Source: Escherichia coli
GTDB lineage: Bacteria; Pseudomonadota; Gammaproteobacteria; Enterobacterales; Enterobacteriaceae
Length of the DNA: 64,000 nucleotides
Direction: 5' to 3' (one strand)
NCBI RefSeq assembly: GCF_024502345.1
Contig: NZ_JALDNN010000001.1
Shown: positions 6,820-45,300 of the stretch, one piece after another
Layout of the letters: the number at the start of each line of letters is the position of its first letter
Numbering within the stretch: the first letter of the stretch is position 1
The notes under the pieces: model-generated
Seen by the model: the letters and a program-made list of their open reading frames with translations, nothing else
The model's database searches: none
Told to the model about the DNA's origin: nothing
Position numbers and translations under genes: made by a program

Positions 6820-8145
6820 ATGAGTGAGATATCCCGGCAAGAGTTTCAGCGTCGCCGTCAGGCCCTGGTGGAGCAAATGCAACCCGGCAGCGCCGCGCTG
6901 ATTTTTGCTGCACCAGAAGTAACACGTAGCGCCGACAGCGAATACCCCTATCGTCAGAACAGTGACTTCTGGTACTTCACCGGCTTTAACGAACCGGAAG
7001 CGGTGCTGGTGCTGATTAAAAGCGATGACACTCATAACCACAGCGTTCTGTTTAACCGCGTTCGCGACCTGACGGCGGAGATCTGGTTTGGCCGTCGCTT
7101 AGGCCAGGATGCCGCGCCAGAGAAACTGGGCGTTGACCGCGCACTGGCATTCAGCGAAATCAATCAGCAACTTTATCAACTACTTAACGGCCTGGATGTG
7201 GTTTACCATGCCCAGGGCGAATATGCATGTGCTGATGAAATCGTGAACAGTGCGCTGGAAAAACTGCGTAAAGGTTCGCGGCAAAATCTCACCGCACCGG
7301 CAACGATGATCGACTGGCGTCCTGTTGTTCATGAAATGCGCCTGTTCAAATCGCCAGAAGAGATTGCCGTACTCCGCCGCGCGGGAGAAATCACCGCCAT
7401 GGCACATACACGGGCGATGGAAAAATGCCGTCCGGGAATGTTCGAGTACCATCTGGAAGGCGAAATTCACCACGAATTTAACCGCCACGGTGCGCGCTAT
7501 CCGTCCTATAACACTATTGTCGGCAGCGGTGAAAACGGCTGCATTCTGCACTACACCGAAAACGAGAGTGAACTGCGCGACGGTGACCTGGTGTTGATTG
7601 ACGCGGGTTGTGAATACAAAGGTTACGCGGGCGATATTACCCGCACCTTCCCGGTCAACGGCAAATTCACCCAGGCCCAGCGTGAAATCTACGACATTGT
7701 GCTGGAGTCTCTCGAAACCAGCCTGCGCCTGTATCGTCCGGGAACTTCCATTCTGGAAGTCACTGGTGAAGTGGTGCGCATCATGGTTAGCGGCCTGGTA
7801 AAACTCGGCATCCTGAAAGGTGATGTTGATGAACTGATCGCTCAGAACGCCCATCGTCCTTTCTTTATGCATGGCCTTAGCCACTGGTTAGGACTGGATG
7901 TCCATGACGTTGGCGTTTATGGTCAGGATCGCTCGCGCATTCTGGAACCGGGCATGGTACTGACCGTAGAGCCTGGTCTGTATATCGCGCCGGATGCGGA
8001 TGTGCCAGAACAATATCGCGGTATCGGCATTCGTATTGAAGACGACATTGTGATTACCGAAACCGGCAACGAAAACCTCACCGCCAGCGTGGTGAAAAAG
8101 CCGGAAGAAATCGAAGCGTTGATGGCTGCTGCGAGAAAGCAATGA
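6820..8145 (+). CDS. pepP: Xaa-Pro aminopeptidase (aminopeptidase P II)
   Basis: ORF 6607..8145; start at MSEISRQEF (ATG 6820, GGAG RBS upstream), 441 aa; M24 metallopeptidase motifs. Confidence 0.93.
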   Translation: MSEISRQEFQRRRQALVEQMQPGSAALIFAAPEVTRSADSEYPYRQNSDFWYFTGFNEPEAVLVLIKSDDTHNHSVLFNRVRDLTAEIWFGRRLGQDAAPEKLGVDRALAFSEINQQLYQLLNGLDVVYHAQGEYACADEIVNSALEKLRKGSRQNLTAPATMIDWRPVVHEMRLFKSPEEIAVLRRAGEITAMAHTRAMEKCRPGMFEYHLEGEIHHEFNRHGARYPSYNTIVGSGENGCILHYTENESELRDGDLVLIDAGCEYKGYAGDITRTFPVNGKFTQAQREIYDIVLESLETSLRLYRPGTSILEVTGEVVRIMVSGLVKLGILKGDVDELIAQNAHRPFFMHGLSHWLGLDVHDVGVYGQDRSRILEPGMVLTVEPGLYIAPDADVPEQYRGIGIRIEDDIVITETGNENLTASVVKKPEEIEALMAAARKQ

Positions 8146-25254: not shown

Positions 25255-26353
25255 ATGTTTGAAATTAATCCGGTAAATAATCGCATTCAGGACCTCACGG
25301 AACGCTCCGACGTTCTTAGGGGGTATCTTTGACTACGACGCCAAGAAAGAGCGTCTGGAAGAAGTAAACGCCGAGCTGGAACAGCCGGATGTCTGGAACG
25401 AACCCGAACGCGCACAGGCGCTGGGTAAAGAGCGTTCCTCCCTCGAAGCCGTTGTCGACACCCTCGACCAAATGAAACAGGGGCTGGAAGATGTTTCTGG
25501 TCTGCTGGAACTGGCTGTAGAAGCTGACGACGAAGAAACCTTTAACGAAGCCGTTGCTGAACTCGACGCCCTGGAAGAAAAACTGGCGCAGCTTGAGTTC
25601 CGCCGTATGTTCTCTGGCGAATATGACAGCGCCGACTGCTACCTCGATATTCAGGCGGGGTCTGGCGGTACGGAAGCACAGGACTGGGCGAGCATGCTTG
25701 AGCGTATGTATCTGCGCTGGGCAGAATCGCGTGGTTTCAAAACTGAAATCATCGAAGAGTCGGAAGGTGAAGTGGCGGGTATTAAATCCGTGACGATCAA
25801 AATCTCCGGCGATTACGCTTACGGCTGGCTGCGTACAGAAACTGGCGTTCACCGCCTGGTGCGTAAAAGCCCGTTTGACTCCGGCGGTCGTCGCCACACA
25901 TCGTTCAGCTCTGCGTTTGTTTACCCGGAAGTTGATGATGATATTGATATCGAAATCAACCCGGCGGATCTGCGCATTGACGTTTATCGCGCGTCCGGCG
26001 CGGGCGGTCAGCACGTTAACCGTACCGAATCTGCGGTGCGTATTACCCACATCCCAACCGGGATCGTGACCCAATGCCAGAACGACCGTTCCCAGCACAA
26101 GAACAAAGACCAGGCCATGAAGCAGATGAAAGCGAAGCTTTATGAACTGGAGATGCAGAAGAAAAATGCCGAGAAACAGGCGATGGAAGATAACAAATCC
26201 GACATCGGCTGGGGCAGCCAGATTCGTTCTTATGTCCTTGATGACTCCCGCATTAAAGATCTGCGTACCGGGGTAGAAACCCGCAACACGCAGGCCGTGC
26301 TGGACGGCAGCCTGGATCAATTTATCGAAGCAAGTTTGAAAGCAGGGTTATGA
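25255..26353 (+). CDS. prfB: peptide chain release factor 2, with programmed +1 frameshift at CUU UGA C (25327-25333)
   Basis: Frame 0 from ATG 25255 gives [25 protein letters not shown] then an in-frame TGA at 25330-25332; the +1 frame from 25331 continues [12 protein letters not shown]... into ORF 25472..26353; AGGGGG SD-like element lies 3 nt upstream; GGQ motif present. Confidence 0.93.
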
Positions 26354-26362
26354 GGAACCAAC

Positions 26363-27880
26363 ATGTCTGAACAACACGCACAGGGCGCTGACGCGGTAGT
26401 CGATCTTAACAATGAACTGAAAACGCGTCGTGAGAAGCTGGCGAACCTGCGCGAGCAGGGGATTGCCTTCCCGAACGATTTCCGTCGCGATCATACCTCT
26501 GACCAATTGCACGCAGAATTCGACGGTAAAGAGAACGAAGAACTGGAAGCGCTGAACATCGAAGTCGCCGTTGCTGGCCGCATGATGACCCGCCGTATTA
26601 TGGGTAAAGCGTCTTTCGTTACCCTGCAGGATGTGGGTGGCCGCATTCAGCTGTACGTTGCCCGTGACGATCTGCCGGAAGGCGTTTACAACGAGCAGTT
26701 CAAAAAATGGGACCTCGGTGACATCCTCGGCGCGAAAGGTAAACTGTTCAAAACCAAAACCGGCGAACTGTCTATCCACTGTACCGAGCTGCGTCTGCTG
26801 ACCAAAGCACTGCGTCCGCTGCCGGATAAATTCCACGGCTTGCAGGATCAGGAAGCGCGCTATCGTCAGCGTTATCTGGATCTCATCTCTAACGATGAAT
26901 CCCGTAACACCTTTAAAGTGCGCTCGCAGATCCTCTCTGGTATTCGCCAGTTCATGGTGAACCGCGGCTTTATGGAAGTTGAAACGCCGATGATGCAGGT
27001 GATCCCTGGCGGTGCCGCTGCGCGTCCGTTTATCACCCACCATAACGCGCTGGATCTCGACATGTACCTGCGTATCGCGCCGGAACTGTACCTCAAGCGT
27101 CTGGTGGTCGGTGGCTTCGAGCGTGTATTCGAAATCAACCGTAACTTCCGTAACGAAGGTATCTCCGTACGTCATAACCCAGAGTTCACCATGATGGAAC
27201 TCTACATGGCTTACGCAGATTACAAAGATCTGATCGAGCTGACCGAATCGCTGTTCCGTACTCTGGCACAGGATATTCTCGGTAAGACGGAAGTGACCTA
27301 CGGCGACGTGACGCTGGACTTCGGTAAACCGTTCGAAAAACTGACCATGCGTGAAGCGATCAAGAAATATCGCCCGGAAACCGACATGGCGGATCTGGAT
27401 AACTTCGACTCTGCGAAAGCGATTGCTGAATCTATCGGTATCCACGTTGAGAAGAGCTGGGGTCTGGGCCGTATCGTTACCGAGATCTTCGAAGAAGTGG
27501 CAGAAGCACATCTGATTCAGCCGACCTTCATTACTGAATATCCGGCAGAAGTTTCTCCGCTGGCGCGTCGTAACGACATTAACCCGGAAATCACAGACCG
27601 CTTTGAGTTCTTCATCGGTGGTCGTGAAATCGGTAACGGCTTTAGCGAGCTGAATGACGCGGAAGATCAGGCGCAACGCTTCCTGGATCAGGTTGCCGCG
27701 AAAGACGCAGGTGACGACGAAGCGATGTTCTACGATGAAGATTACGTTACCGCACTGGAACATGGCTTACCGCCGACAGCAGGTCTGGGGATTGGCATCG
27801 ACCGTATGGTAATGCTGTTCACCAACAGCCATACCATCCGCGACGTTATTCTGTTCCCGGCGATGCGTCCGGTAAAATAA
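26363..27880 (+). CDS. lysS: lysyl-tRNA synthetase (constitutive)
   Basis: 505 aa; class II aaRS motifs. Confidence 0.95.
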
Positions 27881-28471: not shown

Positions 28472-28720
28472 AATTTCTCACATGTAATTCTGATCACTCA
28501 TCATTATAGATAATTGAAGAGTGAAATGATTAACCAAGTGAGCGTTTATCGACAACCGCCCGTTTTGAGCGGATGCCGACAGGTAAAAACCATTTAAAAA
28601 AGTAGCATCATATATTTGAAGCGACTTTCAATGGCCATTGCAACACAGTCAGAAATGACAGGAATAGAGAGAGTAAAAAGCAACAGCAGACTGAATATAG
28701 CGCGCATTAAAAAATTCATA

Positions 28721-30169
28721 TTATTCTCCATGCTCATTTTTCTTCAGCTTGCGCATCAGAAGCCACATACGTACTGTCCTGACTTTTAAATCTTTATCAG
28801 AGACGGATTCCTTCACCAGGTCAGCATGATGCTGATAGCCATTAAAGAAGACGTTCAGCACAACGGCGCTAAGGGTTGCGAGCATAATGCCGCTATGTAG
28901 CAGCGGTTGCAGTACGGCCGGTAACTTAGAAAAGAAATCGTGAGAGAGCGTCGGAGTCATGCCAACGCCGAGACTGATCGCCACAATATAGAGGTTGTAA
29001 CGGTTGGTGGTGTAGTTACAGCGCGACAAAATTCGAATCCCTGTCGCCAGTACCATGCCGAACATCACTAGACCAGCGCCGCCCAGCACAAATTGCGGAA
29101 TGGAGGCTACCAGCACCGCCATTTTTGGCACCATGCCAAACAGGATTAATATAATTCCCGAAGAAATACACACCCAGCGGCTATGAACGCGCGTCACGCT
29201 AACCAGGCCAACGTTTTGTGAAAATGACGTGTGGGGGAAGCTGTTAAACGTGCCGCCTATCATTGTCCCTACGCCATCGACACGCAGCCCGCGAATAATA
29301 TCGTGCGAAGAGAGTTTACGACCGACTATTTCACCCAGTGCCAGGAACATCCCCATCGACTCGATAAACACGATGATTAACACGGCAGTCATGGTCAGAA
29401 TGGAAACGGGATCGAAAATCGGCATACCAAACGACATCGGCGTAACAATCGCAAACCATGAAGCATCATGTAGCCCGGATAAATTGACTTCATTCATCAT
29501 CCACGAAAGTAAAAAGCCAAATACAATCCCCAGTAATACTGCGACGTTGGACATAAATCCTTTCGCATAGCGAGTAATGAGCAAGATAAAAATTAAGACG
29601 GCAAAGGAGATACCTAAATAAACGGGATTACCATATTGCGGATTCCCTTTACCTCCGGCGGCCCAGTCAATGCCCACCTGAATGATGCTAAGCCCGATAG
29701 AAGTAATAACCACACCGGTAACCAGTGGCGGGAATAAAGGCATCAAGCGACCGATAAGTGGCGCTAATAATGTGGTGATAAAACCCGCGGCGATAGTGGC
29801 ACCAAATATCCCCAGCAGGCCGATATCCGGGTTCATCCCAATGGCTATCATTGGTGTTACAGCAGCAAAGGTCACCGACATAATCACCGGCAGGCGGATC
29901 CCCATAAAGCGGCCGATACCGATACATTGCAATAATGTGACGATCCCGCAGCAAAAGAGATCCGAGCTAATGAGCATCGCAATAGCTTCTTTTGAGAGGC
30001 CCAGTCGGTCACCAATCATAAGAGGAACAGCGACTGCACCTGCGTACATGACAAGGACGTGTTGCAGACCGAGTATGATCAGCTTTCCTGGTGATAATAT
30101 GCGGTCAACCTCATCAGTTGGGCGGTCTTGCCCAGAAGATGAGGGAAGTTGGGAATCTATGGCGCTCAT
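28721..30169 (-). CDS. uacT: uric acid:H+ symporter (NCS2/NAT family)
   Basis: ORF 28721..30298; start at MSAIDSQLPSSSGQDR (complement of 30167-30169), 482 aa; polytopic membrane protein. Confidence 0.9.
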   Translation of the reverse strand: MSAIDSQLPSSSGQDRPTDEVDRILSPGKLIILGLQHVLVMYAGAVAVPLMIGDRLGLSKEAIAMLISSDLFCCGIVTLLQCIGIGRFMGIRLPVIMSVTFAAVTPMIAIGMNPDIGLLGIFGATIAAGFITTLLAPLIGRLMPLFPPLVTGVVITSIGLSIIQVGIDWAAGGKGNPQYGNPVYLGISFAVLIFILLITRYAKGFMSNVAVLLGIVFGFLLSWMMNEVNLSGLHDASWFAIVTPMSFGMPIFDPVSILTMTAVLIIVFIESMGMFLALGEIVGRKLSSHDIIRGLRVDGVGTMIGGTFNSFPHTSFSQNVGLVSVTRVHSRWVCISSGIILILFGMVPKMAVLVASIPQFVLGGAGLVMFGMVLATGIRILSRCNYTTNRYNLYIVAISLGVGMTPTLSHDFFSKLPAVLQPLLHSGIMLATLSAVVLNVFFNGYQHHADLVKESVSDKDLKVRTVRMWLLMRKLKKNEHGE

Positions 30170-30604: not shown

Positions 30605-32524
30605 ATGAATAAGTTTATCGCTGCTGAAGCTGCGGAATGTATAGGCTGTCATGCTTGTGAAATTGCCTGTGCGGTGGCACACAATCAAGAAAACTGGCCG
30701 CTGAGTCACAGTGACTTTCGACCGCGTATCCACGTTGTAGGGAAAGGCCAGGCTGCGAATCCGGTGGCCTGCCATCACTGCAACAATGCCCCTTGCGTTA
30801 CGGCTTGTCCGGTTAATGCTCTGACTTTCCAGTCCGATAGCGTACAACTGGACGAGCAAAAATGTATTGGTTGTAAAAGATGCGCAATCGCTTGCCCCTT
30901 TGGCGTCGTTGAGATGGTCGATACGATTGCGCAGAAATGCGACCTTTGCAACCAGCGCAGTTTCGGCACGCAAGCCTGTATTGAAGTCTGCCCAACACAG
31001 GCTTTACGGCTGATGGACGATAAAGGGTTACAGCAGATAAAGGTGGCCCGCCAGCGCAAAACGGCAGCAGGAAAAGCGTCATCAGACGCTCAGCCATCTC
31101 GCAGTGCAGCGTTGCTCCCCGTTAACTCGCGTAAAGGCGCAGATAAAATTTCAGCAAGTGAACGGAAAAACCACTTTGGCAAAATCTATTGCGGGCTGGA
31201 TCCACAACAAGCGACTTATGAGAGTGACCGCTGTGTTTATTGTGCCGAAAAAGCTAACTGCAACTGGCATTGCCCGCTGCATAACGCTATTCCGGATTAC
31301 ATCCGTCTGGTACAGGAGGGAAAGATTATTGAAGCGGCAGAACTTTGCCACCAGACCAGTTCCTTACCAGAAATCTGCGGCAGGGTATGTCCACAGGACC
31401 GTCTTTGTGAAGGCGCATGTACTTTGAAAGATCACTCTGGCGCAGTCACTATCGGTAATCTGGAACGCTACATCACCGATACCGCGCTGGCGATGGGCTG
31501 GCGTCCCGATGTCAGCAAAGTTGTTCCCCGTAGCGAAAAAGTGGCGGTGATTGGGGCTGGGCCAGCAGGGTTAGGGTGTGCTGATATTCTGGCGCGCGCA
31601 GGAGTTCAGGTCGATGTCTTTGATCGCCATCCAGAAATTGGCGGTATGCTGACTTTTGGCATTCCTCCTTTCAAACTCGATAAAACGGTATTAAGCCAGC
31701 GGCGAGAGATATTCACCGCAATGGGAATCGACTTTCATCTTAACTGTGAAATTGGCCGCGATATTACCTTTAGCGATTTAACTTCTGAATATGATGCAGT
31801 TTTCATCGGCGTGGGGACTTACGGGATGATGCGAGCAGATCTGCCGCATGAAGATGCGCCCGGTGTCATTCAGGCTCTACCGTTCCTGACTGCCCATACC
31901 CGCCAGCTCATGGGATTGCCGGAGTCTGAAGAGTATCCGCTGACGGACGTGGAAGGTAAGCGAGTCGTGGTATTGGGCGGTGGCGATACGACAATGGATT
32001 GTTTGCGGACTTCCATTCGCCTCAATGCTGCCAGCGTGACCTGCGCGTATCGTCGTGATGAAGTCAGTATGCCGGGCTCGCGCAAAGAGGTGGTCAATGC
32101 GCGCGAGGAAGGTGTCGAGTTTCAGTTCAATGTTCAGCCGCAATATATCGCTTGTGACGAAGATGGGCGTTTAACTGCAGTGGGCCTGATTCGTACCGCC
32201 ATGGGGGAGCCGGGGCCGGATGGTCGCCGTCGTCCTCGTCCGGTAGCGGGTTCAGAGTTTGAATTGCCCGCCGATGTTCTCATTATGGCCTTTGGTTTCC
32301 AGGCGCATGCCATGCCGTGGTTGCAGGGCAGCGGAATTAAACTCGATAAATGGGGCCTGATTCAAACCGGTGACGTCGGGTATTTACCTACCCAGACGCA
32401 TCTGAAAAAAGTCTTTGCTGGTGGGGATGCAGTTCATGGCGCGGATCTGGTTGTCACTGCCATGGCCGCAGGAAGGCAGGCGGCGCGCGATATGTTAACT
32501 CTGTTTGATACGAAGGCATCGTGA
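30605..32524 (+). CDS. ygfT: putative Fe-S/FAD oxidoreductase (glutamate synthase small-subunit-like, with N-terminal ferredoxin domain)
   Basis: ORF 30590..32524; start at [19 protein letters not shown]; several CxxCxxCxxxCP clusters followed by GAGPAG dinucleotide-binding motifs; 639 aa. Confidence 0.9.
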
Positions 32525-33012
32525 TGAAATCGTTAATTATCGTTAATCCGGCTGACTGTATTGGCTGCCGTACTTGTGAAGTGGCCTGTGTGGTCGCTCA
32601 CCCTTCAGAACAGGAGTTGAATGCCGATGTCTTTTTACCCCGGCTGAAGGTACAGCGACTGGACTGCATCAGTGCGCCGGTGATGTGCCATCAGTGTGAA
32701 AACGCCCCTTGTGTTGGCGCTTGCCCCGTGGGGGCGCTGGCGATGGGCGAGCAGGTGGTGCAGACCAATTCTGCCCGTTGTATTGGCTGTCAGAGCTGTG
32801 TCAGTGCGTGTCCGTTTGGGATGATCACCATTCAGTCGTTGCCGGGGGATACCCGGCAACAAATCGTGAAATGCGATCTCTGTGAACAGCGGGAAGAGGG
32901 GCCAGCCTGCGTTGAATCTTGCCCGACACAGGCGCTGCAGTTGCTTACTGAAAGAGAACTCAGGCGAATCCGCCAGCAGCGTATTGTTGCCAGCGGTGAG
33001 AATCCTCTCTGA
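32521..33012 (+). CDS. ygfS: 4Fe-4S ferredoxin-type protein
   Basis: 163 aa with four CxxCxxCxxxCP-type motifs; ATGA overlap with the ygfT stop. Confidence 0.9.
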
Positions 33013-33018
33013 AAGAAA

Positions 33019-33042
33019 TCTCCGCGCTGAAAGGCGCGGAGA
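33019..33042. terminator. bidirectional hairpin terminator between ygfS and ghxQ
   Basis: TCTCCGCGCTGAAAGGCGCGGAGA perfect palindrome between convergent genes. Confidence 0.65.
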
Positions 33043-33047
33043 ATCTA

Positions 33048-34415
33048 TTAGATTGCCCAACCACCCGCGTAAAATGCGACCAGTGCGGCAGTAATGATCA
33101 CCGTACCAATATTCAGCTTTTGCCATTCGCGTGCAAAGACGCGGCCTACGACCAGTGTCACAAAGCCCAGCATAATACCGGTAACGATATTACAAGTTAG
33201 AACGATGAACACGGCACACACCAGGCCAGCCATAGCGTCAATAAAATCATTGAAATCCAGCTTCGAGACGTTACTTAACATCAGCAAACCTACGTACATC
33301 AGAGCGGGTGCAGTGGCGTAACCAGGGATCAAAAATGACAGCGGTGATAAGAACAGAATCAGCAGGAATAACGCCCCCACTACGGTTGCGGTTAACCCTG
33401 TTTTACCCCCGGCGGCGGTTCCTGCCGCTGATTCGATATAAACCGCTGCGGGCGCTGCGCCCACCAGGCCGGAGAATATTGAACTTACTGAGTCACTGGT
33501 CAGGGCTTTGCCGCCGTTGATGATCTGGTTGTCTTTATCCAACAAATTCGCCTGACCGGCGACGGCACGGATGGTGCCAGTGGCGTCGAACACTGCGGTC
33601 ATCACCAATGCCAGTACACTCGGAAGTACAGTTGGCTGGAGTGCGCCCATAATATCGAGGCTAAAAATCAGAGACTTACCATCTTCGCCAGTCAGGCTTG
33701 GCATCGCCACCAGACCGTGGTATTTCACCGCTGGATCAAAGATTAAGCCGATGATCGAGATGGCAATAATCACCAACAAGATCCCGCCGGGTACGCGGCA
33801 CTTTTCCAGGCCGAAGATGACCGCCAGCCCCAGCAAGCTCATCATCACCGGGAAGGAGGTAAACGCACCGAGCGCCACTGGCAAGCCTTCAATCGGGTTT
33901 TTGATAACCATTCCCACACCGTTAGCAGCAATCAGCAGCAGAAACAGGCCGATACCGATACCTGTACCGTGAGCTATCCCCATCGGTAAATTACGTAAGA
34001 TCCAGGTACGCACCCCGGTTACGGAAATGGCGGTGAAGATGACGCCCATCAGAAAGACCGCGCCCAGTGCGACAGGAACGCTAATTTGTTGCCCGAGTAC
34101 CAGACTGAATGCGGTAAACGCCGTCAAGGAAATCGCGCAACCAATCGCCATTGGCAAATTGGCCCATAATCCCATCAGCAACGAGCCGAAGCCCGCGACC
34201 AGACAGGTGGCAACAAACACAGCTGCGGGAGGAAAACCTGCTTTGCCCAGCATTCCCGGAACGACGATAACGGAATAAACCATGGCCAGAAAGGTCGTTA
34301 AGCCAGCCAGTACTTCCTGACGAACAGTACTGCCACGAGCGGTAATTTTAAAATAATTATCCAGCGCGCCCTGTGGCTTTGGTGCGTCCGGTGTTTGTAG
34401 GATGTCTCCAGACAT
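33048..34415 (-). CDS. ghxQ: guanine/hypoxanthine permease (AzgA-like NCS2 family)
   Basis: 455 aa, polytopic; [34 protein letters not shown]... Confidence 0.9.
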
Positions 34416-34450
34416 AATGATGTCCTCACGAGGATGTAAAAGTTTTATTA

Positions 34451-35770
34451 TTAGTTGCGTTCGTACACCAGACGACCATCAACGTAGGTGCGGTAGATCG
34501 AACGGTCATCGCCCAACGTCATCATCACGAACAATTTGTCGACTAAAGAAACAGAGTTGTCATAGCGCAGCTGCTGTAGCGGAGTGGCGGTGGGTTCCAT
34601 CACCACGAAATCAGCCTCTTTGCCAGGTAAAAAGTTGCCAATCAAATCGTCAAGGCCCAGAGATTTCGCTCCGCCGAGCGTGGCCAGGTAAAACGCTTCA
34701 TATGCCGAGAGGCGATAGCCTTGTAATTGCAACACTTTGTAGGCTTCGTTCAGCGTTTGCAGCATGTTGAAAGTGGTTCCGGCACCGATATCCGTTCCCA
34801 TGCCCACTTTGACTTTCTTCTGCCATGCTTTTTTCAAGTTGAATAAGCCGCTGCCGAGGTAAAGGTTGGAGGTCGGACAGAAAGCAATGCTGGATTTGGT
34901 TTCGCTGAGACGATCCCACTCTTTTTCTTCGAGATGGACGCAGTGAGCAAAGACACAGTTTTTACCGGTCAGGCCGTACTGATGGTAAACATCCAGATAA
35001 CCATCATGGTCAGGATAAAGCGAGTTCACCCAGGCAATTTCATCTTTGTTTTCACAGAGATGGGTATGTACCCACGTATCCGGATATTCCTCTTTCAGGC
35101 GTTGCGCCATCGCCATCTGTTCAGGAGAAGAAGTAGGGGCGAAGCGTGGTGTAATCGCATATAGCAGACGACCATTTTTGTGCCAGCGTTCAATCAGTTC
35201 TTTGCTTTGGTGATAGCTGCTTTCGGCAGTGTCGAGCAGATAATCCGGTGCGTTACGGTCCATCATCACCTTACCGGCAATCATACGCATATTGATATGA
35301 CTGGCGGCTTCAAACAGCGCATCAACGGATTGCGGATGAACAGTGCCAAACACCAGCGCCGTGGTGGTTCCGTTACGTAAAAGCTGCTTGATGAAGAACG
35401 CCGACATTTCGCGGGCGTACTCTAAATCCTCATAACGCCGTTCAGTAGGGAAGGTGTGTTTATTCAACCACTCCAGCAATTGCTCACCATAGGCCCCCAC
35501 CATTTCACTTTGCGGATAATGGATATGTGTATCGACAAAGCCCGGTACTATCAGTTTGCCGCGATAGTCGCGCACGCGAATGGTGTCAGGAATTTGATGC
35601 TTTCCGTTTTCCCATTCGCCAAACCATTCCACTTTTCCCTGTTTAATGAGTAATAAACCATCCTCAATAAACCGCAGCGCAGAGGCAATCTCTTCCGGGT
35701 TATCGACCGTACGGGTGACATCAATAAAACTGCCTCGTACCGCTTTTAACGTGTGTTCTCCTGACATCAT
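34451..35770 (-). CDS. guaD: guanine deaminase
   Basis: ORF 34451..35890; start at [15 protein letters not shown] (complement of 35765-35770); amidohydrolase metal site ([12 protein letters not shown]); 439 aa. Confidence 0.92.
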
Positions 35771-35784
35771 TGACTCCTTTACTG

Positions 35785-37185
35785 TTAATCCATCTCTTCC
35801 GCTGAGGTAATACCAGGCAGAACGTTTTCCTGTCGGTAGCCACCAGGGAGGATAATATTTAATAAAATCGCAGTTAACCCGCCAGCACAAATAGGGTTTT
35901 CAACTAATACATAAATAGAGGCTGGCAATATTTTAAAAATTTCGGGATCGTAGGAGACGCCAAGCCCTAAACCTAAAGAAGTGGCGACAATAAGTGTTTC
36001 ACGCCGCTTTAATCCGTTGGTGATGATGATGCGAATCCCAGCGATGGCAATCATGGAAAACATCAACGTCATTGCGCCTCCCAGAACTGCCGAGGGAATG
36101 GTCGTGAAGAAGCCGCCAATCATCGGAAATAAGCCGAGGATAACCAGCATTACCGCGATGGTTCGCCCGACATAACGTGAAGCGACGCCAGTCATCTGAA
36201 TAACCCCATTATTTTGCGCAAACGTGGTTAATGGTAATGAACCGACAGCGGAGGCGATAACAGAAACCAGACCATCTGCCAGCACGCCGCCTTTCAGTCG
36301 GGACTGATACTCTTCCCCCTGAATGGGGCGGCGGGAAACCATTGCCGTGGCGGTGATATCGCCGACTGCTTCCAGCACGCTAAGCAGATAAATCGTGCCA
36401 ACCACCAGGAACTGATGGAAGCTAAAACTAAAGCCGTATTTGAACGGATGCGGGATGGTGATTAACGGCAAATTGCGCATACTGCTGAAATCCACCATGC
36501 CCAGGCATAACGATGCGATATAGCCGACACATAGCCCAATGGCGATCCCTCCCATGCGTAGCAACGGACTGCGACAGCAGTTAAAGCCGATCACCACAAT
36601 TAAAACCAATAAACCAACGCCGAGATGTTCGTAATTGCCGAACGTACCGCTGCTTTTGGCTGCAAATCCTCCACCAAAATCGATAATGCCGACTTTAATC
36701 AGGCTTAAGCCGATCATCAGTACCACAATACCGCTGACGGTAGGCGTAATAACCCGACGTAAATAGGGCAAGATAAATGAAGATCCGACAACCAGAAATG
36801 CGCCAACGAAGGAGACGCCGAGAAGCGACGACATGATTAACTCTTCGTGAAAACCGTCGCTTTTCATGCTGCTGCCCAGCGCAATCATGACCGTAACAAA
36901 TGAAAAATTGACTGACTGAATTGAGAGTAGGCCAGAACCGACGATGCCGTAGCGGTTTACTTGTAACCAGGTACCAATACCAGAGGCGATCATCGCCATA
37001 GAAACAAGATAGGCGGTTGTTTCAGCGGAAAGCTGTAAGGCCGCACCCACGATTAACACGGGGGTTACCATCGGAACGAAAATTGCCAACAGATGGGTAA
37101 TGGCACCAACGAGAGCCTGATGAAAGGGAGGGCGATCCTCCAGTTCAAATATAAGGTCAGAACCTGCATGGTTTATATCAGACAT
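35785..37185 (-). CDS. xanQ: xanthine permease (NCS2 family)
   Basis: ORF 35785..37242; start at MSDINHAGSDLIFELEDRPPFHQA; 466 aa. Confidence 0.9.
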   Translation of the reverse strand: MSDINHAGSDLIFELEDRPPFHQALVGAITHLLAIFVPMVTPVLIVGAALQLSAETTAYLVSMAMIASGIGTWLQVNRYGIVGSGLLSIQSVNFSFVTVMIALGSSMKSDGFHEELIMSSLLGVSFVGAFLVVGSSFILPYLRRVITPTVSGIVVLMIGLSLIKVGIIDFGGGFAAKSSGTFGNYEHLGVGLLVLIVVIGFNCCRSPLLRMGGIAIGLCVGYIASLCLGMVDFSSMRNLPLITIPHPFKYGFSFSFHQFLVVGTIYLLSVLEAVGDITATAMVSRRPIQGEEYQSRLKGGVLADGLVSVIASAVGSLPLTTFAQNNGVIQMTGVASRYVGRTIAVMLVILGLFPMIGGFFTTIPSAVLGGAMTLMFSMIAIAGIRIIITNGLKRRETLIVATSLGLGLGVSYDPEIFKILPASIYVLVENPICAGGLTAILLNIILPGGYRQENVLPGITSAEEMD

Positions 37186-37349
37186 CCCTTCACTCCTTTT
37201 AAAGTAAATTTGATCATCTGAATTAGTAAAATAAATTCCCACGAATTTGGGGCGCAGGACGCCTTGAGAACGGCTTATCTCATTTTCGCAGTCACTATTT
37301 AGTCATCGTCCAAACAGAGAAACAGGCCGCCGAAGCGGCCATTTATTAT

Positions 37350-40220
37350 TTATATCTTTTCCAGCGCGGTGAGTATTTTCTCCGGTGTGAAATGCCATTC
37401 GCGTAACCAGATGCCGCATGCATCGTGAATTGCGGTAGCAATCGCCGGAGCTGCGCCATTTACACCGATTTCCGAGATCGATTTCGCCCCGAACGGGCCG
37501 ACTTTATCGTCGCTCGGCACCAGCACTGCGCGGAAATCACGCGGAATGTCACCAATTTTCGGTGCGCCGTAGCTGCGTAAATCACGCGTTAACGGGTGAC
37601 CTTCGGCGTCATAAATGATCTCTTCGCTCATACTGTGGCCGATAGCTCGCAGGGTAGCACCGTAGATTTGTCCCAATGCTAATTCCGGGTTGACCGGTGT
37701 ACCGCAGTCCAGCAAGGCGTAGAATTTATCCAGGCGGATTTCACCCGTACGCGTGTTGACGGCAACTTCAGCGAAGTTTGCGCCATACGGGAAGGCGAAA
37801 TCAGGCGTGATATAACTGCCAGTTCCCACCAGTGAACCAAAGCCGGTGCCGGTTTCGCCTTTATGAGCAATATCCCCGAAGCTGACTTCGCCTTTCTTGC
37901 CGCGCACGACGCCCGGCGTTGCCAGTTGAACATCTGCCACTGCCTCACCCAACATTTGCGCGCCGTGGAACAGAATTTTCTCCCGCAGATTTTCCGCTGC
38001 CAAACGCGCCGCGTTACCTGAGAAGCAAGTACCGGACGAGGCATATGCGCCTTTATCAAACAACGCATGATCGGTATCACCGGAGATAACATGCACGTCC
38101 TGCGGTGGGCAGTGCAGCACTTCTGCTGCCAGTTTCGTCACTACAGTATCCAGACCAGTACCAATATCCGCACCGCCAGAATGAACGATAAAGGTGCCGT
38201 CCGATTCCAGTTTGATCATGCAGTTAGCCTGATCGATATCCGGGATACCCGATTTCTGCATGATAATGGCGACGCCGCGACCGATGTGCCAGTCACCATT
38301 TTGCGGTTTCGGTGACGACCATTGGATCATCTCGCGACCCTGACGCAGGATCTCTTCCAGTGCACAGCTGGCGGCGGAAGGAACGGAGGTCGGCGCTTTA
38401 CCTTCACCGATTGCACCGAGAATTTTCAGCTCTTGCCCTTCGTGTACCCGGTTACGTTCGATAATTTCCAGTTGGTCGATCTGTAACTGTTCAGCCAGTT
38501 CCGCTAATGCCATGGTGATAGCGAAGTTACCTTTCGGTGCGCCATAACCCTGATAAGCACCATTTGGGCAAATGTTGCTGTAGTAGGTGGTGACCTGGAA
38601 ATCGACGTTATCGCACGGATATAACGGCAGCGACAGCGCCGGTCCGTTACACGGTACGGTGAGTGAGTGGTTGCCGTAAGGGCCAGTGTTGGCGCGGAAA
38701 TCCATCTTCACTGCCGTCAGGCGACCATCTTTTTTCGCTCCCAGTTTGACGGTGACTTTCGCGACGTGACGAGAGGTGTTAGCAATAAACTCTTCTTCAC
38801 GGGTGTAGCGGAACAGGACCGGACGCCCGGTCACGCAGGTTGCCCAGGCGCACACTTCTTCCAGCAGGATGTCCTGTTTGGAACCAAAACCGCCGCCAAC
38901 TCGTTCTTTAATGACATGAACTTTATGCTGTTTCATGCCCACGAGGCGCGCGACCTGGCGGCGTAAGTGCCATGGTACCTGGGTGGAGGCGTGGATAACC
39001 AGACGATCGCCGTCCATACGAGTAAAGCAGATATGTGTTTCAGTCGGGCACTGCTGCGCTTGCGTTGAGTTATAGGTTCGCTCAATGATCACATCGGCAT
39101 CGGCAAAGCCTTTGTCCATATCGCCAATATGACCATGAATACTGGCGGCGATATTTTTGCGTGGACGAGAACCGATCGGGAAGTTGATGATCATATGCTC
39201 GCCGCGCTGGGCTGCATGGCTGTTATCGTCTTCCAGAGTATCTGGCGCACCAGCAACATACACAACCGGTTCATCGTGCACGACAGGCGCATCTTCCGCC
39301 ATTGCTTCGTCGATCGACATTACCGGTTTAAGCACTTCATATTCAACGTCGATGAGCTTCAATGCTTCAAGCGCAATTTCTTCACTTTCAGCGACGACCG
39401 CAGCAACACGATCGCCGACGTGACGCATTTTCTTGCCGAACATACGGCGGTCAAGCGGTGACGGTTCCGGTGCGCTCTGCCCCCCCGGGGTATAGTAGAT
39501 ATCCGGGCAATTCAGATGAGTAATAACGTGAACGACGCCCGGTAAGGCTTCAGCTTTGCTGACATCCAGATGAGTAATCAGTGCGTGAGCGTGTGGGCTA
39601 CGTAACATTTTAATGACGCAGGCGTCAGCCGTTACGCGGTCTTCAACATAGCAGGGCTTCGCCTGCACCATTTTTGCGGCATCAGTTTTAGGATAATGCT
39701 TACCAATGACTTCAAGGTCGTCACGGAAAGTCGGAGCGATATCAATGGTGGCCTGCGGATTATTTTTACGTGCAACCGCCAGTTCAATGACCTGATAGTA
39801 TTGTTGCCAGCCTGCATCGCGGCTGAACAAACCAGAAAGCGCGTCGTCGATCTCTTCGCGGGTAGGTGCGGCGATGCGATCGAGAAGATCGGTGATAATC
39901 AGAGCCGCAGCTGGATCGTTATAACCAGACTGCACCACGCCAACATCAACCATTGCCTGTTGAACCAGACTTAACTCGTTCCATTTGCCCAGAGATTCTG
40001 CGGTACGAATATCTGCCTTCTCTAACTGTGCGGCAATAAGCAAGGACGCGTTAACGATATTACCGTTAAAGATAATTGCGTCAGAACCGGCAAACCCGAA
40101 GCCATCATCACTGTTGCGTACAGAGTGCATTCCCATGTTAAACAACAGCTTTTGCACGTTTTCGCCTAGATTAACGGTTAGCTCCTGAGGCGCGCCATTT
40201 AAAGTAAAGTGGATGATCAT
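37350..40220 (-). CDS. xdhD: molybdopterin-dependent hydroxylase (xanthine dehydrogenase family) with N-terminal Fe-S domain; putative selenium-dependent
   Basis: 956 aa; aldehyde oxidase/xanthine dehydrogenase Mo-binding domain signatures. Confidence 0.9.
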   Translation of the reverse strand: MIIHFTLNGAPQELTVNLGENVQKLLFNMGMHSVRNSDDGFGFAGSDAIIFNGNIVNASLLIAAQLEKADIRTAESLGKWNELSLVQQAMVDVGVVQSGYNDPAAALIITDLLDRIAAPTREEIDDALSGLFSRDAGWQQYYQVIELAVARKNNPQATIDIAPTFRDDLEVIGKHYPKTDAAKMVQAKPCYVEDRVTADACVIKMLRSPHAHALITHLDVSKAEALPGVVHVITHLNCPDIYYTPGGQSAPEPSPLDRRMFGKKMRHVGDRVAAVVAESEEIALEALKLIDVEYEVLKPVMSIDEAMAEDAPVVHDEPVVYVAGAPDTLEDDNSHAAQRGEHMIINFPIGSRPRKNIAASIHGHIGDMDKGFADADVIIERTYNSTQAQQCPTETHICFTRMDGDRLVIHASTQVPWHLRRQVARLVGMKQHKVHVIKERVGGGFGSKQDILLEEVCAWATCVTGRPVLFRYTREEEFIANTSRHVAKVTVKLGAKKDGRLTAVKMDFRANTGPYGNHSLTVPCNGPALSLPLYPCDNVDFQVTTYYSNICPNGAYQGYGAPKGNFAITMALAELAEQLQIDQLEIIERNRVHEGQELKILGAIGEGKAPTSVPSAASCALEEILRQGREMIQWSSPKPQNGDWHIGRGVAIIMQKSGIPDIDQANCMIKLESDGTFIVHSGGADIGTGLDTVVTKLAAEVLHCPPQDVHVISGDTDHALFDKGAYASSGTCFSGNAARLAAENLREKILFHGAQMLGEAVADVQLATPGVVRGKKGEVSFGDIAHKGETGTGFGSLVGTGSYITPDFAFPYGANFAEVAVNTRTGEIRLDKFYALLDCGTPVNPELALGQIYGATLRAIGHSMSEEIIYDAEGHPLTRDLRSYGAPKIGDIPRDFRAVLVPSDDKVGPFGAKSISEIGVNGAAPAIATAIHDACGIWLREWHFTPEKILTALEKI

Positions 40221-40996
40221 ACGGCTTCCTCCCCAGCCTGTTGGCAGTCGGCATACAGGTCGGCTACCAGAACTCCCGTGATATAGCGTTTATAGGCCAC
40301 GCTGCCCCGCAAATCTTCCTGCGGGAAAATGGCGTTGGCGACAGCCTGTTCAAGTGCATTGCCTTCCAGATTTTGTTTTTCGACATCGTGCAGACGCAGT
40401 GCTTTACTGGCGACGCCATCCAGCGCAATTCGCATACCGTCGTGGTCTGTCATTGCAACGGCTGCCGTCACGACGGTTAAACCTGCCTGAGAACGGCTAA
40501 TTTTGCGGGTCGCACAGGTGCGATACGGATCTTTAATGATAATTTCGGTTAGCAGGCGATCGCATGGGCAGGTCAGGTAGTCCTCGATTGACAGCGTTTC
40601 GCCGTTGCCAAAAACCAGTTCAGCATCCAGTGCCAGCAGGACGGGAAGCAGCACCGACTCTTCCTGCCGGGCGGCGATTTCACCACCAATGGTCGACTGA
40701 TTACGAACATGGCGTGAGTAAACAAAACCGAGGGCTTCACGCAGCGCTGCAGGAATAAATCGCGCATCACGCAGTGGCTGCAAGCGAGACATTGCGCCAA
40801 TCCGCAGTGCACCGTTATCCCAGTCAACCCAGTCCAGTTCCAGATCCTGTAAGGAAATGGCAATCTTTTTATCGGTACGGGTTGGTGTAGCATTGAGTTT
40901 GCTGCCCCCGGCGAACCAGACGGCTTCATCTTGGTAGCGGCGCTTCAGTTCCAGCGCCTGTTCGACAGAGTCGGGCCTGAAAAATTGTTCAATCAT
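40217..40996 (-). CDS. ygfM: FAD-binding subunit of molybdenum hydroxylase (CoxM/XdhB-like)
   Basis: 259 aa; overlaps the xdhD start by 4 nt. Confidence 0.88.
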   Translation of the reverse strand: MIEQFFRPDSVEQALELKRRYQDEAVWFAGGSKLNATPTRTDKKIAISLQDLELDWVDWDNGALRIGAMSRLQPLRDARFIPAALREALGFVYSRHVRNQSTIGGEIAARQEESVLLPVLLALDAELVFGNGETLSIEDYLTCPCDRLLTEIIIKDPYRTCATRKISRSQAGLTVVTAAVAMTDHDGMRIALDGVASKALRLHDVEKQNLEGNALEQAVANAIFPQEDLRGSVAYKRYITGVLVADLYADCQQAGEEAV

Positions 40997-41046
40997 CTTC
41001 TTTCCTTATTTAACCCTCTTCCCTGCGGGAAGAGGGCATCTGTCAT

Positions 41047-42375
41047 TTATGCCAGCGCATCCATCCGACGCCACATACTGGCAGCGGCTTTTCTGGCTTG
41101 TGCATAAATGGAATCGCAATCGAAGTTAAACTGACGGTCTTCATAGACCATCACACCATTGACCATTACGCTGTGAACGCTGCCTGAGCCCATACCGAAA
41201 GCGATATGCCCGGCGATATTGTCTGCCAGCAGCGGCGTCGGCGAGTTGTAATCGCAAATGGTTAAATCAGCTTTGTAACCGGCTTCCAGAAGCCCAAATT
41301 TCGCGCCAAAGTTGCGGCTCATCAGTTCGTTACCGTTAGTCAGGGCTTTGGCAAAACTGTCAGGCCACAGCGGATCACCCGCATCGCGATGTTTAAAGAA
41401 GGCAAATTTCATCTCTTCAAACATGTCCGAACCAATGCCGTCCGTTCCCAACGCCAGATTGCGGATGTCGCTAAGGTGATGGTTGTAGCCGACATGGTTG
41501 TTCATGTTTGAACGGGCGTTATGCACCAGGAACGCATCGCGCTGATTGAGTAGGGCGATGTCATCTTTCGACAAGTACAGCCCATGAGCGACCAGCGTTT
41601 TGCTGTCGATGAGATCGAATTGCGCCAGTCGTGCCAGCAGGTCTTTGCCGTACCAGTGGTGACTGTAGGAAACGTCGTAAAGGTCTTCCGCAGCGTGAAT
41701 ATGCAAACCACGGCCTGTGGCTTTCACGGCTTCACGCAGCATCTCCAGACCGGCATCCGGCACGGTAAACGGCGCGTGAGCACCGATATGTGCTTCCACC
41801 AGATACGGCTCGCTTGTCGCTTTCTTCGCCTCATCAATCAAACGGGCGAAACGGATGTTTTCTTCTACACCTTCCTGCAACTCTTTGATGCCGTTGTTAC
41901 GGTCAGTAGTTTCAAAACAGGTCATTGCGCGCAGGCCAACTTTTAAAAATGCGTCGCGCAATGTGGAGAGCGACCCGCCGATATACGCCGGAGAGGCATG
42001 GTGATCGATAACCGATGTACATCCGCTCTTAATCGCTTCCAGGGAACAAATCAGTCCGCTGTAATAGAGCGACTCTTCATCAAGGGCGCGATCGAGCCGC
42101 CACCAGAGATTTTTCAGCGTTGAGATGAAATCCGGGCAGGGGGCGATGTTTGCCATAATTCCGCGGGAAAGCCCCGAGTAAAAATGGTTGTGCGAGCAGA
42201 CAATTCCCGGCATCACAATCCGACCATGCATCTCTTTGTAGCTGGCATCGGGGTCGCGTTGCGTCAGGGCATCGCCGATAGCGACAATCACGTCATTTTC
42301 GATAGCGATATCAACGCCTTCCTGTACTTTCGCCGGGTGTAACTGCACTGCGGTGACATTCTTCAGAATCAACAT
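41047..42375 (-). CDS. ssnA: amidohydrolase/chlorohydrolase-family protein SsnA
   Basis: ORF 41047..42441; start at MLILKNVTAVQ (complement of 42373-42375); metal-dependent hydrolase HxH motif (SHNHFYS); 442 aa. Confidence 0.9.
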   Translation of the reverse strand: MLILKNVTAVQLHPAKVQEGVDIAIENDVIVAIGDALTQRDPDASYKEMHGRIVMPGIVCSHNHFYSGLSRGIMANIAPCPDFISTLKNLWWRLDRALDEESLYYSGLICSLEAIKSGCTSVIDHHASPAYIGGSLSTLRDAFLKVGLRAMTCFETTDRNNGIKELQEGVEENIRFARLIDEAKKATSEPYLVEAHIGAHAPFTVPDAGLEMLREAVKATGRGLHIHAAEDLYDVSYSHHWYGKDLLARLAQFDLIDSKTLVAHGLYLSKDDIALLNQRDAFLVHNARSNMNNHVGYNHHLSDIRNLALGTDGIGSDMFEEMKFAFFKHRDAGDPLWPDSFAKALTNGNELMSRNFGAKFGLLEAGYKADLTICDYNSPTPLLADNIAGHIAFGMGSGSVHSVMVNGVMVYEDRQFNFDCDSIYAQARKAAASMWRRMDALA

Positions 42376-42377
42376 GA

Positions 42378-45300
42378 TTACACCTCCACGCGGCCCAGCA
42401 GATAATGATGATGCTGGTGGACATGGCTGATGATGCGGCACATATCGTTCAGCTCCGGTGGTACGTTGTTAAACTGACCTTCGCTGTCGATGTTTAACAC
42501 CCAGCTTTGGTTATTCAGACGTACTCGTACCCGGCAATCTTCCACAAGGAAGCCTGGGTTGCTGCTGTTATCAAAGTCTTGCGCCAGGCTGAAGACGGTG
42601 ATTTTGTCTTTGTATGGTTTACCGTTCCACGGACAGAACTGAGCGCAGTTGCCGCATTCGTTACAGTAAGCGTCGAGGTGCAGCGTCTGGAATCTATTCT
42701 GGAAGCCAGGGACTGCAATGGAGACGTTGGCGCGGTTCGGGCAGACATCCACGCACTTGCTGCAAACGTAGTTACATTCAAGGCAGCGAGCAGCTTCCTG
42801 CGCGACAAACGCATCACGATCGTCACTGTTCACCAGCGTGATAGAGATATCGCCTTTACGTTGATAGATTTCCGCCGGATTGACGTTGTTCCAGTATTTA
42901 TTGTTCTGGTGGGAACGGATATTTTCCCGACTAAGGATGGCATCGGTCGCCCGACGCGCGGTTCCGACAGCAGCGACAATGGAGGATGGTCCGCGCTGTA
43001 CGTCGCCGATCATAAAGACGTCAGTCAGACGAGTTTCGCCATTATGGTCGACGTCTGGCCAGCCGTTTTTGTCCAGCGGTACGCCCATCGCATTCAGGGC
43101 TTCAGTATCCTGCTGTTCACCGATGGCGGTGATCAGACTGTCTACATGCAGTGTTACTGTTTCGTTGGTTTCAACCGGACGGCGACGACCTTTCTCATCG
43201 GGTTCGCCAAGCGACATAACGCGCAAGGTTAAGGTGCCATCAGCATCGAAACATTCCGGATTATTCAGGAAACGGAACTCCACGCCGTCGTGCAACGCTT
43301 CTTCATACTCTTCGCGCCATGCGGGCATCTCTTGCAGTGAACGACGGTAAACGATCGTTGCTTTTTCTACGCCTGGAACGCGTAACGCCGCACGAGCGCA
43401 GTCCATTGCGGTGTTACCCGCCCCGACAACGACCACATGTTTGCCCAGCTTGAGCGCTGTACCCTTGTTGTATTCACGCAGGAAGGGGAGTGATTTCCAG
43501 ACATTTTGGTTGTCGCCCGCCAGTTTCACACCGCTATTTTTATCAGTGCCGGTGGCAATCAGAACATAGTGGAAGCCCTGATTTTTTAACTGTTCAACGG
43601 TCAAATCGGGTGAGCAGCCATACTCAAATTTCACGCCGTGAGCGGCAACAAAATCGATATCGTGCTGAATTAACTCTGCAGGAATACGGAACTGAGGGAT
43701 GATATTTTTCACCACGCCGCCCGCATTGGCTTCGCGTTCAAACAGCGTAACCGGATGGCCCGCTCTGGCAAGGAAGTAACCTGCAGCCAGACCCGCCGGA
43801 CCTGCACCAATCACTGCAACCGGATGGCGTGAACCAGAACCGGCTGGTTTGTGCCAGCGTTGCTTATATTCATCCCAACCTTTTTCCAGCGCGACTTTTT
43901 TCAGTTCGCGGATATTCAGTGCACTGTCGTAATCCAGGCGGGTACAGTTGTATTGGCACTGGTGATCGCAAATATGACCGGTAATGGCGGGCAGGGCGTT
44001 GCGTTGGTAGATAAGTTCCAGCGCGTCGGCATAGCGGTGTTCGCCAAGCAGACGGATGTATTCCGGAATATCTTGCTTGATCGCGCAGGCAGTAACACAG
44101 GGGGCAACGTAGCAGTCGGTCAGCGGCAGGTCTTCTGCCACTTCAATACGCTCTTCTGGCTTCCAGTGTTTCTGGGTGTATTCCATGGTTAGCGCGTCTG
44201 CTGCCAGTCTGTTCAGTCGTTCGACGTCAACATGGTCAAGTCCCCAGGCGTCGGAGCCTTCCAGCTCGCGCATGCAGGCACTTAAACGCAGATAGCCACC
44301 AGGTTTCAGCAGGTCGGTTGCCATAGTAATAGGGCGAATACCTGTATCAAAAATATCGCGGATAGTCAGCTGACTGGCACCACCGGAATAAGAAATGGGC
44401 AGTTTGCCGTCAAAGGCGCGAGAGAGAACTGCTGCAACATTGATGGAGAGCGGGAACAGCGCACGGCCTGACATATACATCTCTTCACCAGGCAGTGCGC
44501 CTTTATTGTTGATGGTGCCGAGAGTGTTAGTCAGTTTTACGCCAAAGCCGAGTGATTTTTCTTTTGCCAGTGCCATCAGGCGTTCCAGCATTTCCAGTGC
44601 TTGCGTCAGCTTGAGGTCGTGATCAAATGACTCTTCTTTTAAGCCTATGTAACCGAAACCGCAGACATCGAGGATCTCACGAACACGCGCGTACCCCAGT
44701 AAGGTCGGGTTGAGTTTCACAAAGGTGTTGAGCCCTTTTTCTTCCAGCATGTAGCGGCAAATGGCTTCGATTTCATGCGGAGGACAGCCGTGCATGGTGG
44801 AGAGGGTGACGCCCTGCACCATACTGGTGGGGATGCGAGCGGGTAAGGCTTGCAAGCTTTCGCGTTTTTCCTGCAATCCGTGGCGGGCTAAAAATGCGTC
44901 ATCCTGGAGTAATTTATTCAGCGTATCGCGATATTGCGCGAATTTCGGATGGTCAGATGCGTCCATCATATTGTCGATGAACTGTTGCATCGGCGGTTGC
45001 TTAATACCTTCAAGGTTGTAACCGACGCTCATATTAAAGATGAACGATTTACCGGAATCAGAAGGCTGGAACATCGCTTCGAGAAGGTGCAGGGCAAACC
45101 AGGCTTTGAGGTATTCATCCCAGGCTTTAAGCAGGGTAAATTCGGTAGACCATTCGGTGTTAAAGCACTCGTCTTCGGCATCGATACAGGGCTTTTCCAG
45201 CTCCAGGCGGTCAAGAATTTGGACGGTTTTTAGTTCGATGAAGCGTCCGCCAGTCAGCCAGGAAGTGACAATATTTTGCGCGAGCTGCGTGTGCGGGCCA

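Follow-up and report, generated by a model that had tools for sequence, protein, structure and literature searches.

Introduction

The closest described counterparts of the gene junctions considered here are the translationally coupled Escherichia coli pairs hyfHI, astDB, menDH and ydbH/ynbE, in which the genes are spaced at −4 nt (NTGA) or −1 nt (TGATG) (Huber et al. 2019, 2023). We analysed junctions of this kind in a 64,000-nt stretch of E. coli DNA (RefSeq assembly GCF_024502345.1, contig NZ_JALDNN010000001.1), hereafter the window, which covers the chromosome from rpiA/serA to xdhABC/actS and contains a purine gene cluster with xanQ, guaD, ghxQ, xdhD, ygfM, ssnA and ygfK. Five gene pairs are concerned, namely pepP>ubiH, ygfT>ygfS, ygfM>xdhD, ygfK>ssnA and xdhB>xdhC (the gene upstream in the mRNA is named first), together with the looser xanQ>guaD pair. 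Like the hyfHI class, with which they share the identical geometry, the window pairs consist of co-directional genes on one transcript, with a Shine–Dalgarno (SD) motif inside the upstream open reading frame (ORF). The two differ in that coupling has been assayed in that class and is predicted for the window pairs, whose SDs range from very strong (xdhD, ssnA, xdhC) to weak (ubiH, ygfS). Stop and start codons are likewise adjacent or overlapping in trpB-trpA, rplK-rplA and atpH-atpA (cited in Huber et al. 2019; Brown and Wade 2025), for which coupling has been shown by experiment, often via long-range RNA structure, whereas for the window pairs we only infer it.

A second point of comparison is the xanthine dehydrogenase/CO dehydrogenase/aldehyde oxidoreductase family (COG1319, COG1529, COG2080), whose subunit gene pairs are likewise tight. 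The −4 spacing of ygfM>xdhD (flavin (FAD) subunit, then molybdenum (Mo)/iron–sulphur (Fe–S) subunit) matches the COG1319>COG1529 median of −3.4 (n = 403); xdhB>xdhC (FAD, then Fe–S) is also at −4, and for this combination only the reverse order was recovered prokaryote-wide (COG2080>COG1319, −4, n = 477). As differences, XdhD has the Fe–S and Mo subunits fused into a single protein, and xdhA and xdhB do not overlap but are spaced at +10. Finally, E. coli has short-spacer junctions with the SD in the spacer, peaking at +9 to +12 nt (Huber et al. 2023), which are too short for a terminator plus a promoter and long enough for an SD, and at which initiation is presumed to be independent or partly coupled. 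The xanQ>guaD, xdhA>xdhB and prfB>lysS junctions resemble these, xanQ>guaD lying just beyond the peak in the +11 to +20 nt zone of gene-specific coupling efficiency.

By analogy with the pairs assayed in E. coli, we consider it likely that the window holds two standard kinds of junction of this species, that is, five tight ones that would be partly coupled, and spacer junctions such as xanQ>guaD.

Results

Five tight gene junctions

Gene calls come from the RefSeq annotation of strain ET350 of E. coli, transferred by blastn, and each junction was read in mRNA orientation. The five tight pairs each lie on the same strand with a spacing within −8 to +6 nt, and there is no room for a terminator or promoter between the genes:

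8142..8145, + strand: pepP stop/ubiH start, ATGA (−4); pepP 6820–8145, ubiH 8142–9320; weak SD
32521..32527, + strand: ygfT stop/ygfS start, GTGATGA, with TGATG giving −1; K-12 distance −1
40217..40220, − strand: ygfM stop/xdhD start, ATGA (−4); ygfM 40217–40996, xdhD 37350–40220
42373..42380, − strand: ygfK stop TAA (42378–42380), 2-nt gap TC, ssnA ATG (42373–42375); SD GGAGG inside ygfK
57864..57867, − strand: xdhB stop/xdhC start, ATGA (−4); xdhB 57864–58742, xdhC 57388–57867

The mRNA contexts are AAAGCA ATGA GCG for pepP>ubiH, GGGGAGGAAGCCGT ATGA TC for ygfM>xdhD, with a strong SD (GGGGAGGA) inside ygfM, GGGGGGAAAATTGCA ATGA AT for xdhB>xdhC, and GTGGAGGTG TAA TC ATG for ygfK>ssnA. A preliminary description of the window had reported 4-nt ATGA overlaps at pepP/ubiH, xdhD/ygfM and xdhB/xdhC and a ygfK stop within 2 nt of the ssnA start, all of which were read at the positions listed. 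It had also given ygfT/ygfS a 4-nt overlap. The TGATG overlap is indeed present there (TCG TGA TGA AAT), but the annotated ygfS ATG yields only 1 nt, and −4 would be obtained only with a GTG start. That is, ygfT carries two successive in-frame TGA stops, of which the first shares 1 nt with the ygfS ATG and the second completes an ATGA with it. Because the four other genera that have this pair all show a plain ATGA, E. coli (−1) appears to have acquired an earlier ygfT stop, with the ancestral ATGA persisting behind the newer one.

If the true starts lay further downstream (or, for guaD, upstream), the overlaps would be annotation artefacts and would disappear, or xanQ and guaD would in fact overlap. 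Other in-frame starts are present (GTG at 32521 for ygfS, TTG at 35890 for guaD and GTG at 42441 for ssnA), the guaD start differs by one codon between K-12 and PGAP, and Trabulsiella SsnA is annotated as both 442 and 444 aa. At the ATGA junctions, however, each ATG (ubiH, xdhD, xdhC) is the earliest start codon of its ORF, and conserved domains or β-strands start at residues 2–12: the FAD_binding_3 domain of UbiH aligns from residue 2, and XdhD and XdhC begin straight with the first β-strand of the 2Fe–2S ferredoxin fold. The next in-frame ATG (codon 10 in ubiH, 29 in xdhD and 16 in xdhC) falls within conserved N-terminal sequence, which for xdhD and xdhC is the ferredoxin domain. Moreover, the genera agree in N-terminal peptides (MIIHF, MLILK) and in protein length (XdhD has 956 aa, YgfM 259 and GuaD 438 in all genera examined; SsnA homologues 442–445 aa), any candidate ygfS or ssnA start keeps its junction tight, and no supported start yields a xanQ/guaD overlap. 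The preliminary description had itself named starts mapped further downstream as what would remove the overlaps; checked against these data, the overlaps are kept. Since first-ATG starts, N-terminal domains and homologue lengths agree, the overlaps are, as judged from the sequence, not annotation artefacts, an explanation that we regard as extremely improbable.

The xanQ/guaD junction

The preliminary description had placed the xanQ stop 16 nt inside the guaD start region. The minus strand instead reads TAA CAGTAAAGGAGTCA ATG ATG. The xanQ stop thus precedes guaD and does not overlap it, and the '16 nt' is what one obtains by counting from the first base of the guaD start back to the final base of the xanQ stop. 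The elements of the junction are:

35785..35787, − strand: xanQ stop codon TAA; xanQ coding sequence (CDS) 35785–37185, mapped from the RefSeq annotation
35771..35784, − strand: xanQ–guaD intergenic spacer CAGTAAAGGAGTCA, holding the guaD SD AAGGAG at 35774–35779
35765..35770, − strand: guaD tandem starts ATGATG, the second ATG (35765–35767) 6 nt after the SD

The spacer measures 14 nt to the ATG at 35770 (K-12 start) or 17 nt to that at 35767 (PGAP start). The second ATG, at the canonical 6 nt after AAGGAG, is the one found in Citrobacter, Atlantibacter, [Enterobacter] lignolyticus, Yokenella and Edwardsiella. With either start the junction falls outside the −8 to +6 nt spacing of the termination–reinitiation class. 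The spacer is unstructured by prediction, the anti-SD duplex of guaD is −8.2 kcal/mol, and the opening energy of its translation initiation region (TIR) is low (5.5 kcal/mol, joint third-lowest among the 48 window genes scored). Given an unstructured spacer and a highly accessible TIR, independent initiation is the simplest reading, and these predictions suggest that guaD most likely initiates largely independently of xanQ. A spacer is present at both xanQ>guaD (14–17 nt) and guaD>ghxQ (35 nt), where the genes joined encode two transporters and a soluble enzyme, and the view of xanQ-guaD-ghxQ as a coupled unit is not supported at these distances. The xanQ/guaD site is a plain ribosome-binding site and not an overlap.

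A guaD ORF extended to TTG 35890, which is the mechanical maximal ORF and the only version overlapping xanQ, was rejected, the homologues being 438 aa long; it is also contradicted by the conserved SD and ATG at 35779–35765.

Conservation among enterobacterial genera

The junctions were compared with those in the neighbourhood of SsnA homologues of seven further enterobacterial genera. The ygfM>xdhD junction is ATGA in six of six genera, with varying flanking codons. At ygfK>ssnA the spacing is +2 in E. coli, Citrobacter, Atlantibacter and Edwardsiella and −4 (ATGA) in Klebsiella, [E.] lignolyticus, Yokenella and Intestinirhabdus, and GGAGG is found 7–11 nt upstream of ssnA in seven of the eight genera, Intestinirhabdus having GGGAGC. 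A spacer separates xanQ and guaD in every case (13–30 nt), and guaD>ghxQ ranges from 29 to 238 nt. That is, the tight geometry is retained over 6–8 enterobacterial genera despite turnover of the adjacent bases.

In a set of 1,695 prokaryotic genomes, the median spacing is about −4 where the paired genes encode the FAD, Mo and Fe–S subunits of the enzyme family, while the spacing of PepP>UbiH is variable (median +1, quartiles −4 to 18; Huber et al. 2023, supplements). Because subunit pairs are held near −4 while PepP>UbiH varies, tight spacing is thus kept where the products work together. In the same supplements, no pan-prokaryote spacing statistics were found for the COG pairs of ygfK>ssnA, ygfT>ygfS and xanQ>guaD.

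Tight junctions against the genome baseline

In E. coli, the spacing seen most often in co-directional pairs is −4, followed by −1, and 707 of 2,987 pairs (24%) fall within −8 to +6 nt (Huber et al. 2023). That range holds 7 of the window's 30 co-directional pairs (23%, against 23.7% E. coli-wide; binomial p = 1.0) and 5 of the 16 in the purine cluster alone (p = 0.55), so that no enrichment of tight junctions over the E. coli baseline is seen in either. Overlaps make up 5 of the 30 window pairs, against roughly 15% expected. Tight junctions are therefore non-random genome-wide, yet stand at the E. coli average density in the window. Moreover, the same distances are catalogued for K-12: xdhB/xdhC −4, ygfK/ssnA +2, ssnA/ygfM 50, ygfM/xdhD −4, xanQ/guaD +14, guaD/ghxQ 35, ygfT/ygfS −1 and pepP/ubiH −4 (Huber et al. 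2023, Table S2). The junctions are real but ordinary, that is, they belong to the commonest bacterial operon type, and the exact pairs and distances were already known for K-12.

Other close junctions were seen in the window. The longest overlap is that of sdhE/ygfX (20 nt, 20715–20734, + strand; GTG start for ygfX), and the ygfX stop TAA is TCA in the window strain (21120–21128), which adds two residues. The spacing is +1 nt at uacT>yqfG (28719–28721, − strand), where yqfG encodes a 41-aa small protein, +5 nt at dsbC>recJ (23425–23431, + strand; GTG start), +9 nt at prfB>lysS (26353–26363, + strand) and +10 nt at xdhA>xdhB (58742–58753, − strand), with the SD in the spacer.

Evidence bearing on translational coupling

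In published assays of five native −4 pairs of E. coli, four were coupled by termination–reinitiation, with an SD contribution anywhere from essential to nil. Coupling efficiency peaks at −4 to +3 nt, drops through +14 nt and is mostly lost by about +38 nt. The tested pairs, together with the conservation across genera, make coupling plausible for the five window pairs at −4, −1 and +2 nt. In each of these pairs an SD motif is found within the upstream ORF, 5–12 nt ahead of the downstream start. The three strongest SDs among the 48 window genes scored are those of xdhD (−11.3 kcal/mol), ssnA (−10.6 kcal/mol) and xdhC (−9.4 kcal/mol), all inside the upstream ORFs. The SDs of ubiH (−3.0 kcal/mol) and ygfS (−3.3 kcal/mol) are weak, which would make these two genes more reliant on a ribosome delivered from upstream.

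At such a tight junction, the ribosome terminating on the upstream gene would already be placed at the next start, where it could re-initiate with the help of the SD inside the upstream gene; alternatively, it could open local structure for a fresh 30S subunit. Either way, downstream translation would follow upstream translation at least partly. Partial coupling of this kind would suit the XdhD–YgfM and XdhB–XdhC subunits and the obligately co-acting YgfK and SsnA, and the tightness of pepP>ubiH is probably incidental.

Several points weigh against partial coupling. Expression of the purine cluster is induced only under certain anaerobic conditions with added urate. Fully independent initiation could be driven by the strong SDs that xdhD, ssnA and xdhC have inside the upstream ORFs, and the predicted TIR opening energy of the tight pairs is slightly but not significantly above that of other genes (10.8 versus 9.2 kcal/mol, p = 0.18). 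Nor does anti-SD strength differ significantly between tight junctions and other genes (p = 0.71), and structure therefore speaks neither for nor against the RNA-unfolding mode of coupling. Furthermore, bioB/bioF is a −4 pair without coupling, the relative translation (ratio of translation efficiencies, TE) of overlapping ORF pairs is about as variable as that of non-overlapping pairs (Burkhardt 2017), and ygfM/xdhD was scored 'not complex' by Huber et al. (2023), before the co-purification result described below.

Several of these points would also fit an explanation in which the tight junctions are neutral by-products of a compact genome and of an easily arising ATGA, three of whose four bases are given by the start codon itself, with the downstream genes initiating at their own SDs without meaningful coupling. 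The abundance of −4 spacings has been ascribed to ease of evolution (Brown and Wade 2025), the density of tight junctions in the window is only the genome average, and pepP and ubiH are unrelated in function, with a spacing that varies by species. On the other hand, every genus examined keeps the tight geometry while nearby bases change, most tested −4 pairs of E. coli are coupled, complex subunits are enriched among tight pairs, and the weak SDs of ubiH and ygfS speak against efficient de novo initiation. We therefore hold the neutral explanation to be rather unlikely and favour partial coupling.

Stoichiometry, complexes and transcription units

The preliminary description had gone on from the overlaps to fixed stoichiometry, which does not follow from the geometry. 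About 70% of the tight E. coli pairs do not encode subunits of a complex, although tight pairs are 4.5-fold enriched for such subunits (Huber et al. 2023). Because overlapping pairs vary in TE ratio and most tight pairs are non-complex, fixed stoichiometry is not implied, and junction geometry alone does not set protein ratios. A literature search for a link between proportional synthesis and coupling gave no result. A fixed ratio would be biologically sensible only for XdhD–YgfM and XdhB–XdhC, as probable subunits of complexes. The domain complements of XdhD plus YgfM and of XdhA plus XdhB plus XdhC fit a Mo/FAD/Fe–S hydroxylase; XdhD co-purifies with a protein of ~30 kDa, putatively YgfM, in a preparation that reduces urate to 2,8-dioxopurine (Li 2025), and xdhB/xdhC was scored 'complex yes' (Huber et al. 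2023, Table S2). A reason for matched synthesis exists for YgfK and SsnA as well, which are active only together, although they were purified separately and SsnA also works with the Clostridioides difficile reductase UacX (Li 2025). There is no evidence of a complex for PepP/UbiH, YgfT/YgfS or XanQ/GuaD/GhxQ, and PepP/UbiH and the transporter–deaminase–transporter trio XanQ–GuaD–GhxQ are without a rationale for matched synthesis.

The hairpins of the two transcription units and of neighbouring spacers are as follows:

37325..37340, − strand: terminator-like hairpin after xdhD, end of the ygfK-ssnA-ygfM-xdhD transcription unit
33019..33042, − strand: terminator-like hairpin after ghxQ, end of the xanQ-guaD-ghxQ transcription unit
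41013..41037, − strand: GC-rich 11-bp hairpin in the 50-nt ssnA–ygfM spacer (−20.2 kcal/mol, z = −4.7)
about 51340–51363, − strand: hairpin in the ygeY>hyuA spacer
52593–52649, − strand: hairpin in the dpaL>ygeY spacer
53847–53903, − strand: hairpin in the ygeW>dpaL spacer

Terminator-like hairpins occur in the two units only after xdhD and after ghxQ. The xdhD-ygfM-ssnA-ygfK genes had been described as one coupled unit; they do form one transcription unit, transcribed in the reverse order (ygfK>ssnA>ygfM>xdhD), but not a continuous coupled chain, the ssnA–ygfM hairpin spacer dividing the transcript into two tight pairs. On the whole, the preliminary description is a correct but routine operon reading, with one junction mis-described and an over-reach on stoichiometry; of its six junction claims five stand, one of these being loosely worded.

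A comparable ssnA–ygfM hairpin of different sequence is found in six of six genera. Spacers of ~50 nt at ssnA>ygfM, ygeY>hyuA, dpaL>ygeY and ygeW>dpaL each contain a GC-rich hairpin of 8–14 bp just upstream of the next SD, and the one at ygeY>hyuA is present in the window and in seven of seven other genera, with a wholly different sequence. The hyuA>arcC and guaD>ghxQ spacers lack such a hairpin. Because the hairpin is kept at ssnA>ygfM and ygeY>hyuA while its sequence differs completely, this suggests a selected structure, which may, for example, stabilise the mRNA, terminate transcription in part or insulate translation.

From such features one could read the urate cluster as a series of conserved translational modules, in which the tight ygfK>ssnA, ygfM>xdhD, ygfT>ygfS and xdhB>xdhC junctions would mark proteins that must be co-made, and the ~50-nt hairpin spacers would insulate the modules or tune mRNA stability or translation. 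We regard this modular organisation as decidedly unlikely. If it were true, the thermodynamically unfavourable reduced yanthine intermediate would be channelled between YgfK and SsnA, or the two would assemble during translation.

Genomic context of the window

The gene order in the window is:

first part: rpiA-serA, ibsC/sib, fau-ssrS-zapA, ygfB-pepP-ubiH-ubiI, gcvTHP, bglA, yqfB, yqfA, ygfZ
second part: sdhE-ygfX, fldB, xerD-dsbC-recJ-prfB-lysS, idi, uacT, ygfT-ygfS
third part (− strand): ghxQ-guaD-xanQ, xdhD-ygfM-ssnA-ygfK
last part: mocA, yqeC-yqeB, arcC-hyuA-ygeY-dpaL-ygeW, ygeV, xdhCBA, actS

A 5-kb query around the xanQ/guaD site matched 5,263 records, corresponding to 5,262 of 5,426 complete E. 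coli genomes; over positions 33000–38000, the top identity in this collection was just 99.2%. The window ends (about 1–1900 and beyond about 63134) diverge from ET350, and a LysR-family gene and a GH15 gene are truncated there. Given the top identity and the divergent ends, the source strain is without a close representative among the complete E. coli genomes.

The sole non-intact CDS mapped in the window is the frameshifted yqfB (N4-acetylcytidine amidohydrolase; 18035–18345, + strand), in which a run of six T near 18055, against seven in ET350, shifts the frame after codon 9 by a 1-nt deletion; this is either a real pseudogene of the strain or a homopolymer sequencing error. The prfB gene has its usual programmed frameshift. 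Between serA and fau there are two tandem modules of a SIB antitoxin RNA and an ibs toxin (4303–4453 and 4695–4845, both − strand; Rfam scores 134 and 137 bits), where only one ibsC is annotated in the reference strain. An Rfam scan of the whole window gave no match in the purine cluster and found only 6S RNA, the two SIB RNAs and one tRNA.

Discussion

Short stop/start overlaps are the default bacterial operon junction, and those described here have little significance beyond correct annotation. Their practical bearing lies in the handling of the cluster. When the urate-degradation cluster is engineered, e.g. for uricolytic probiotic strains, the ygfK>ssnA and ygfM>xdhD junctions should be preserved, and polar or start-codon edits in an upstream gene may reduce the amount of the downstream protein.

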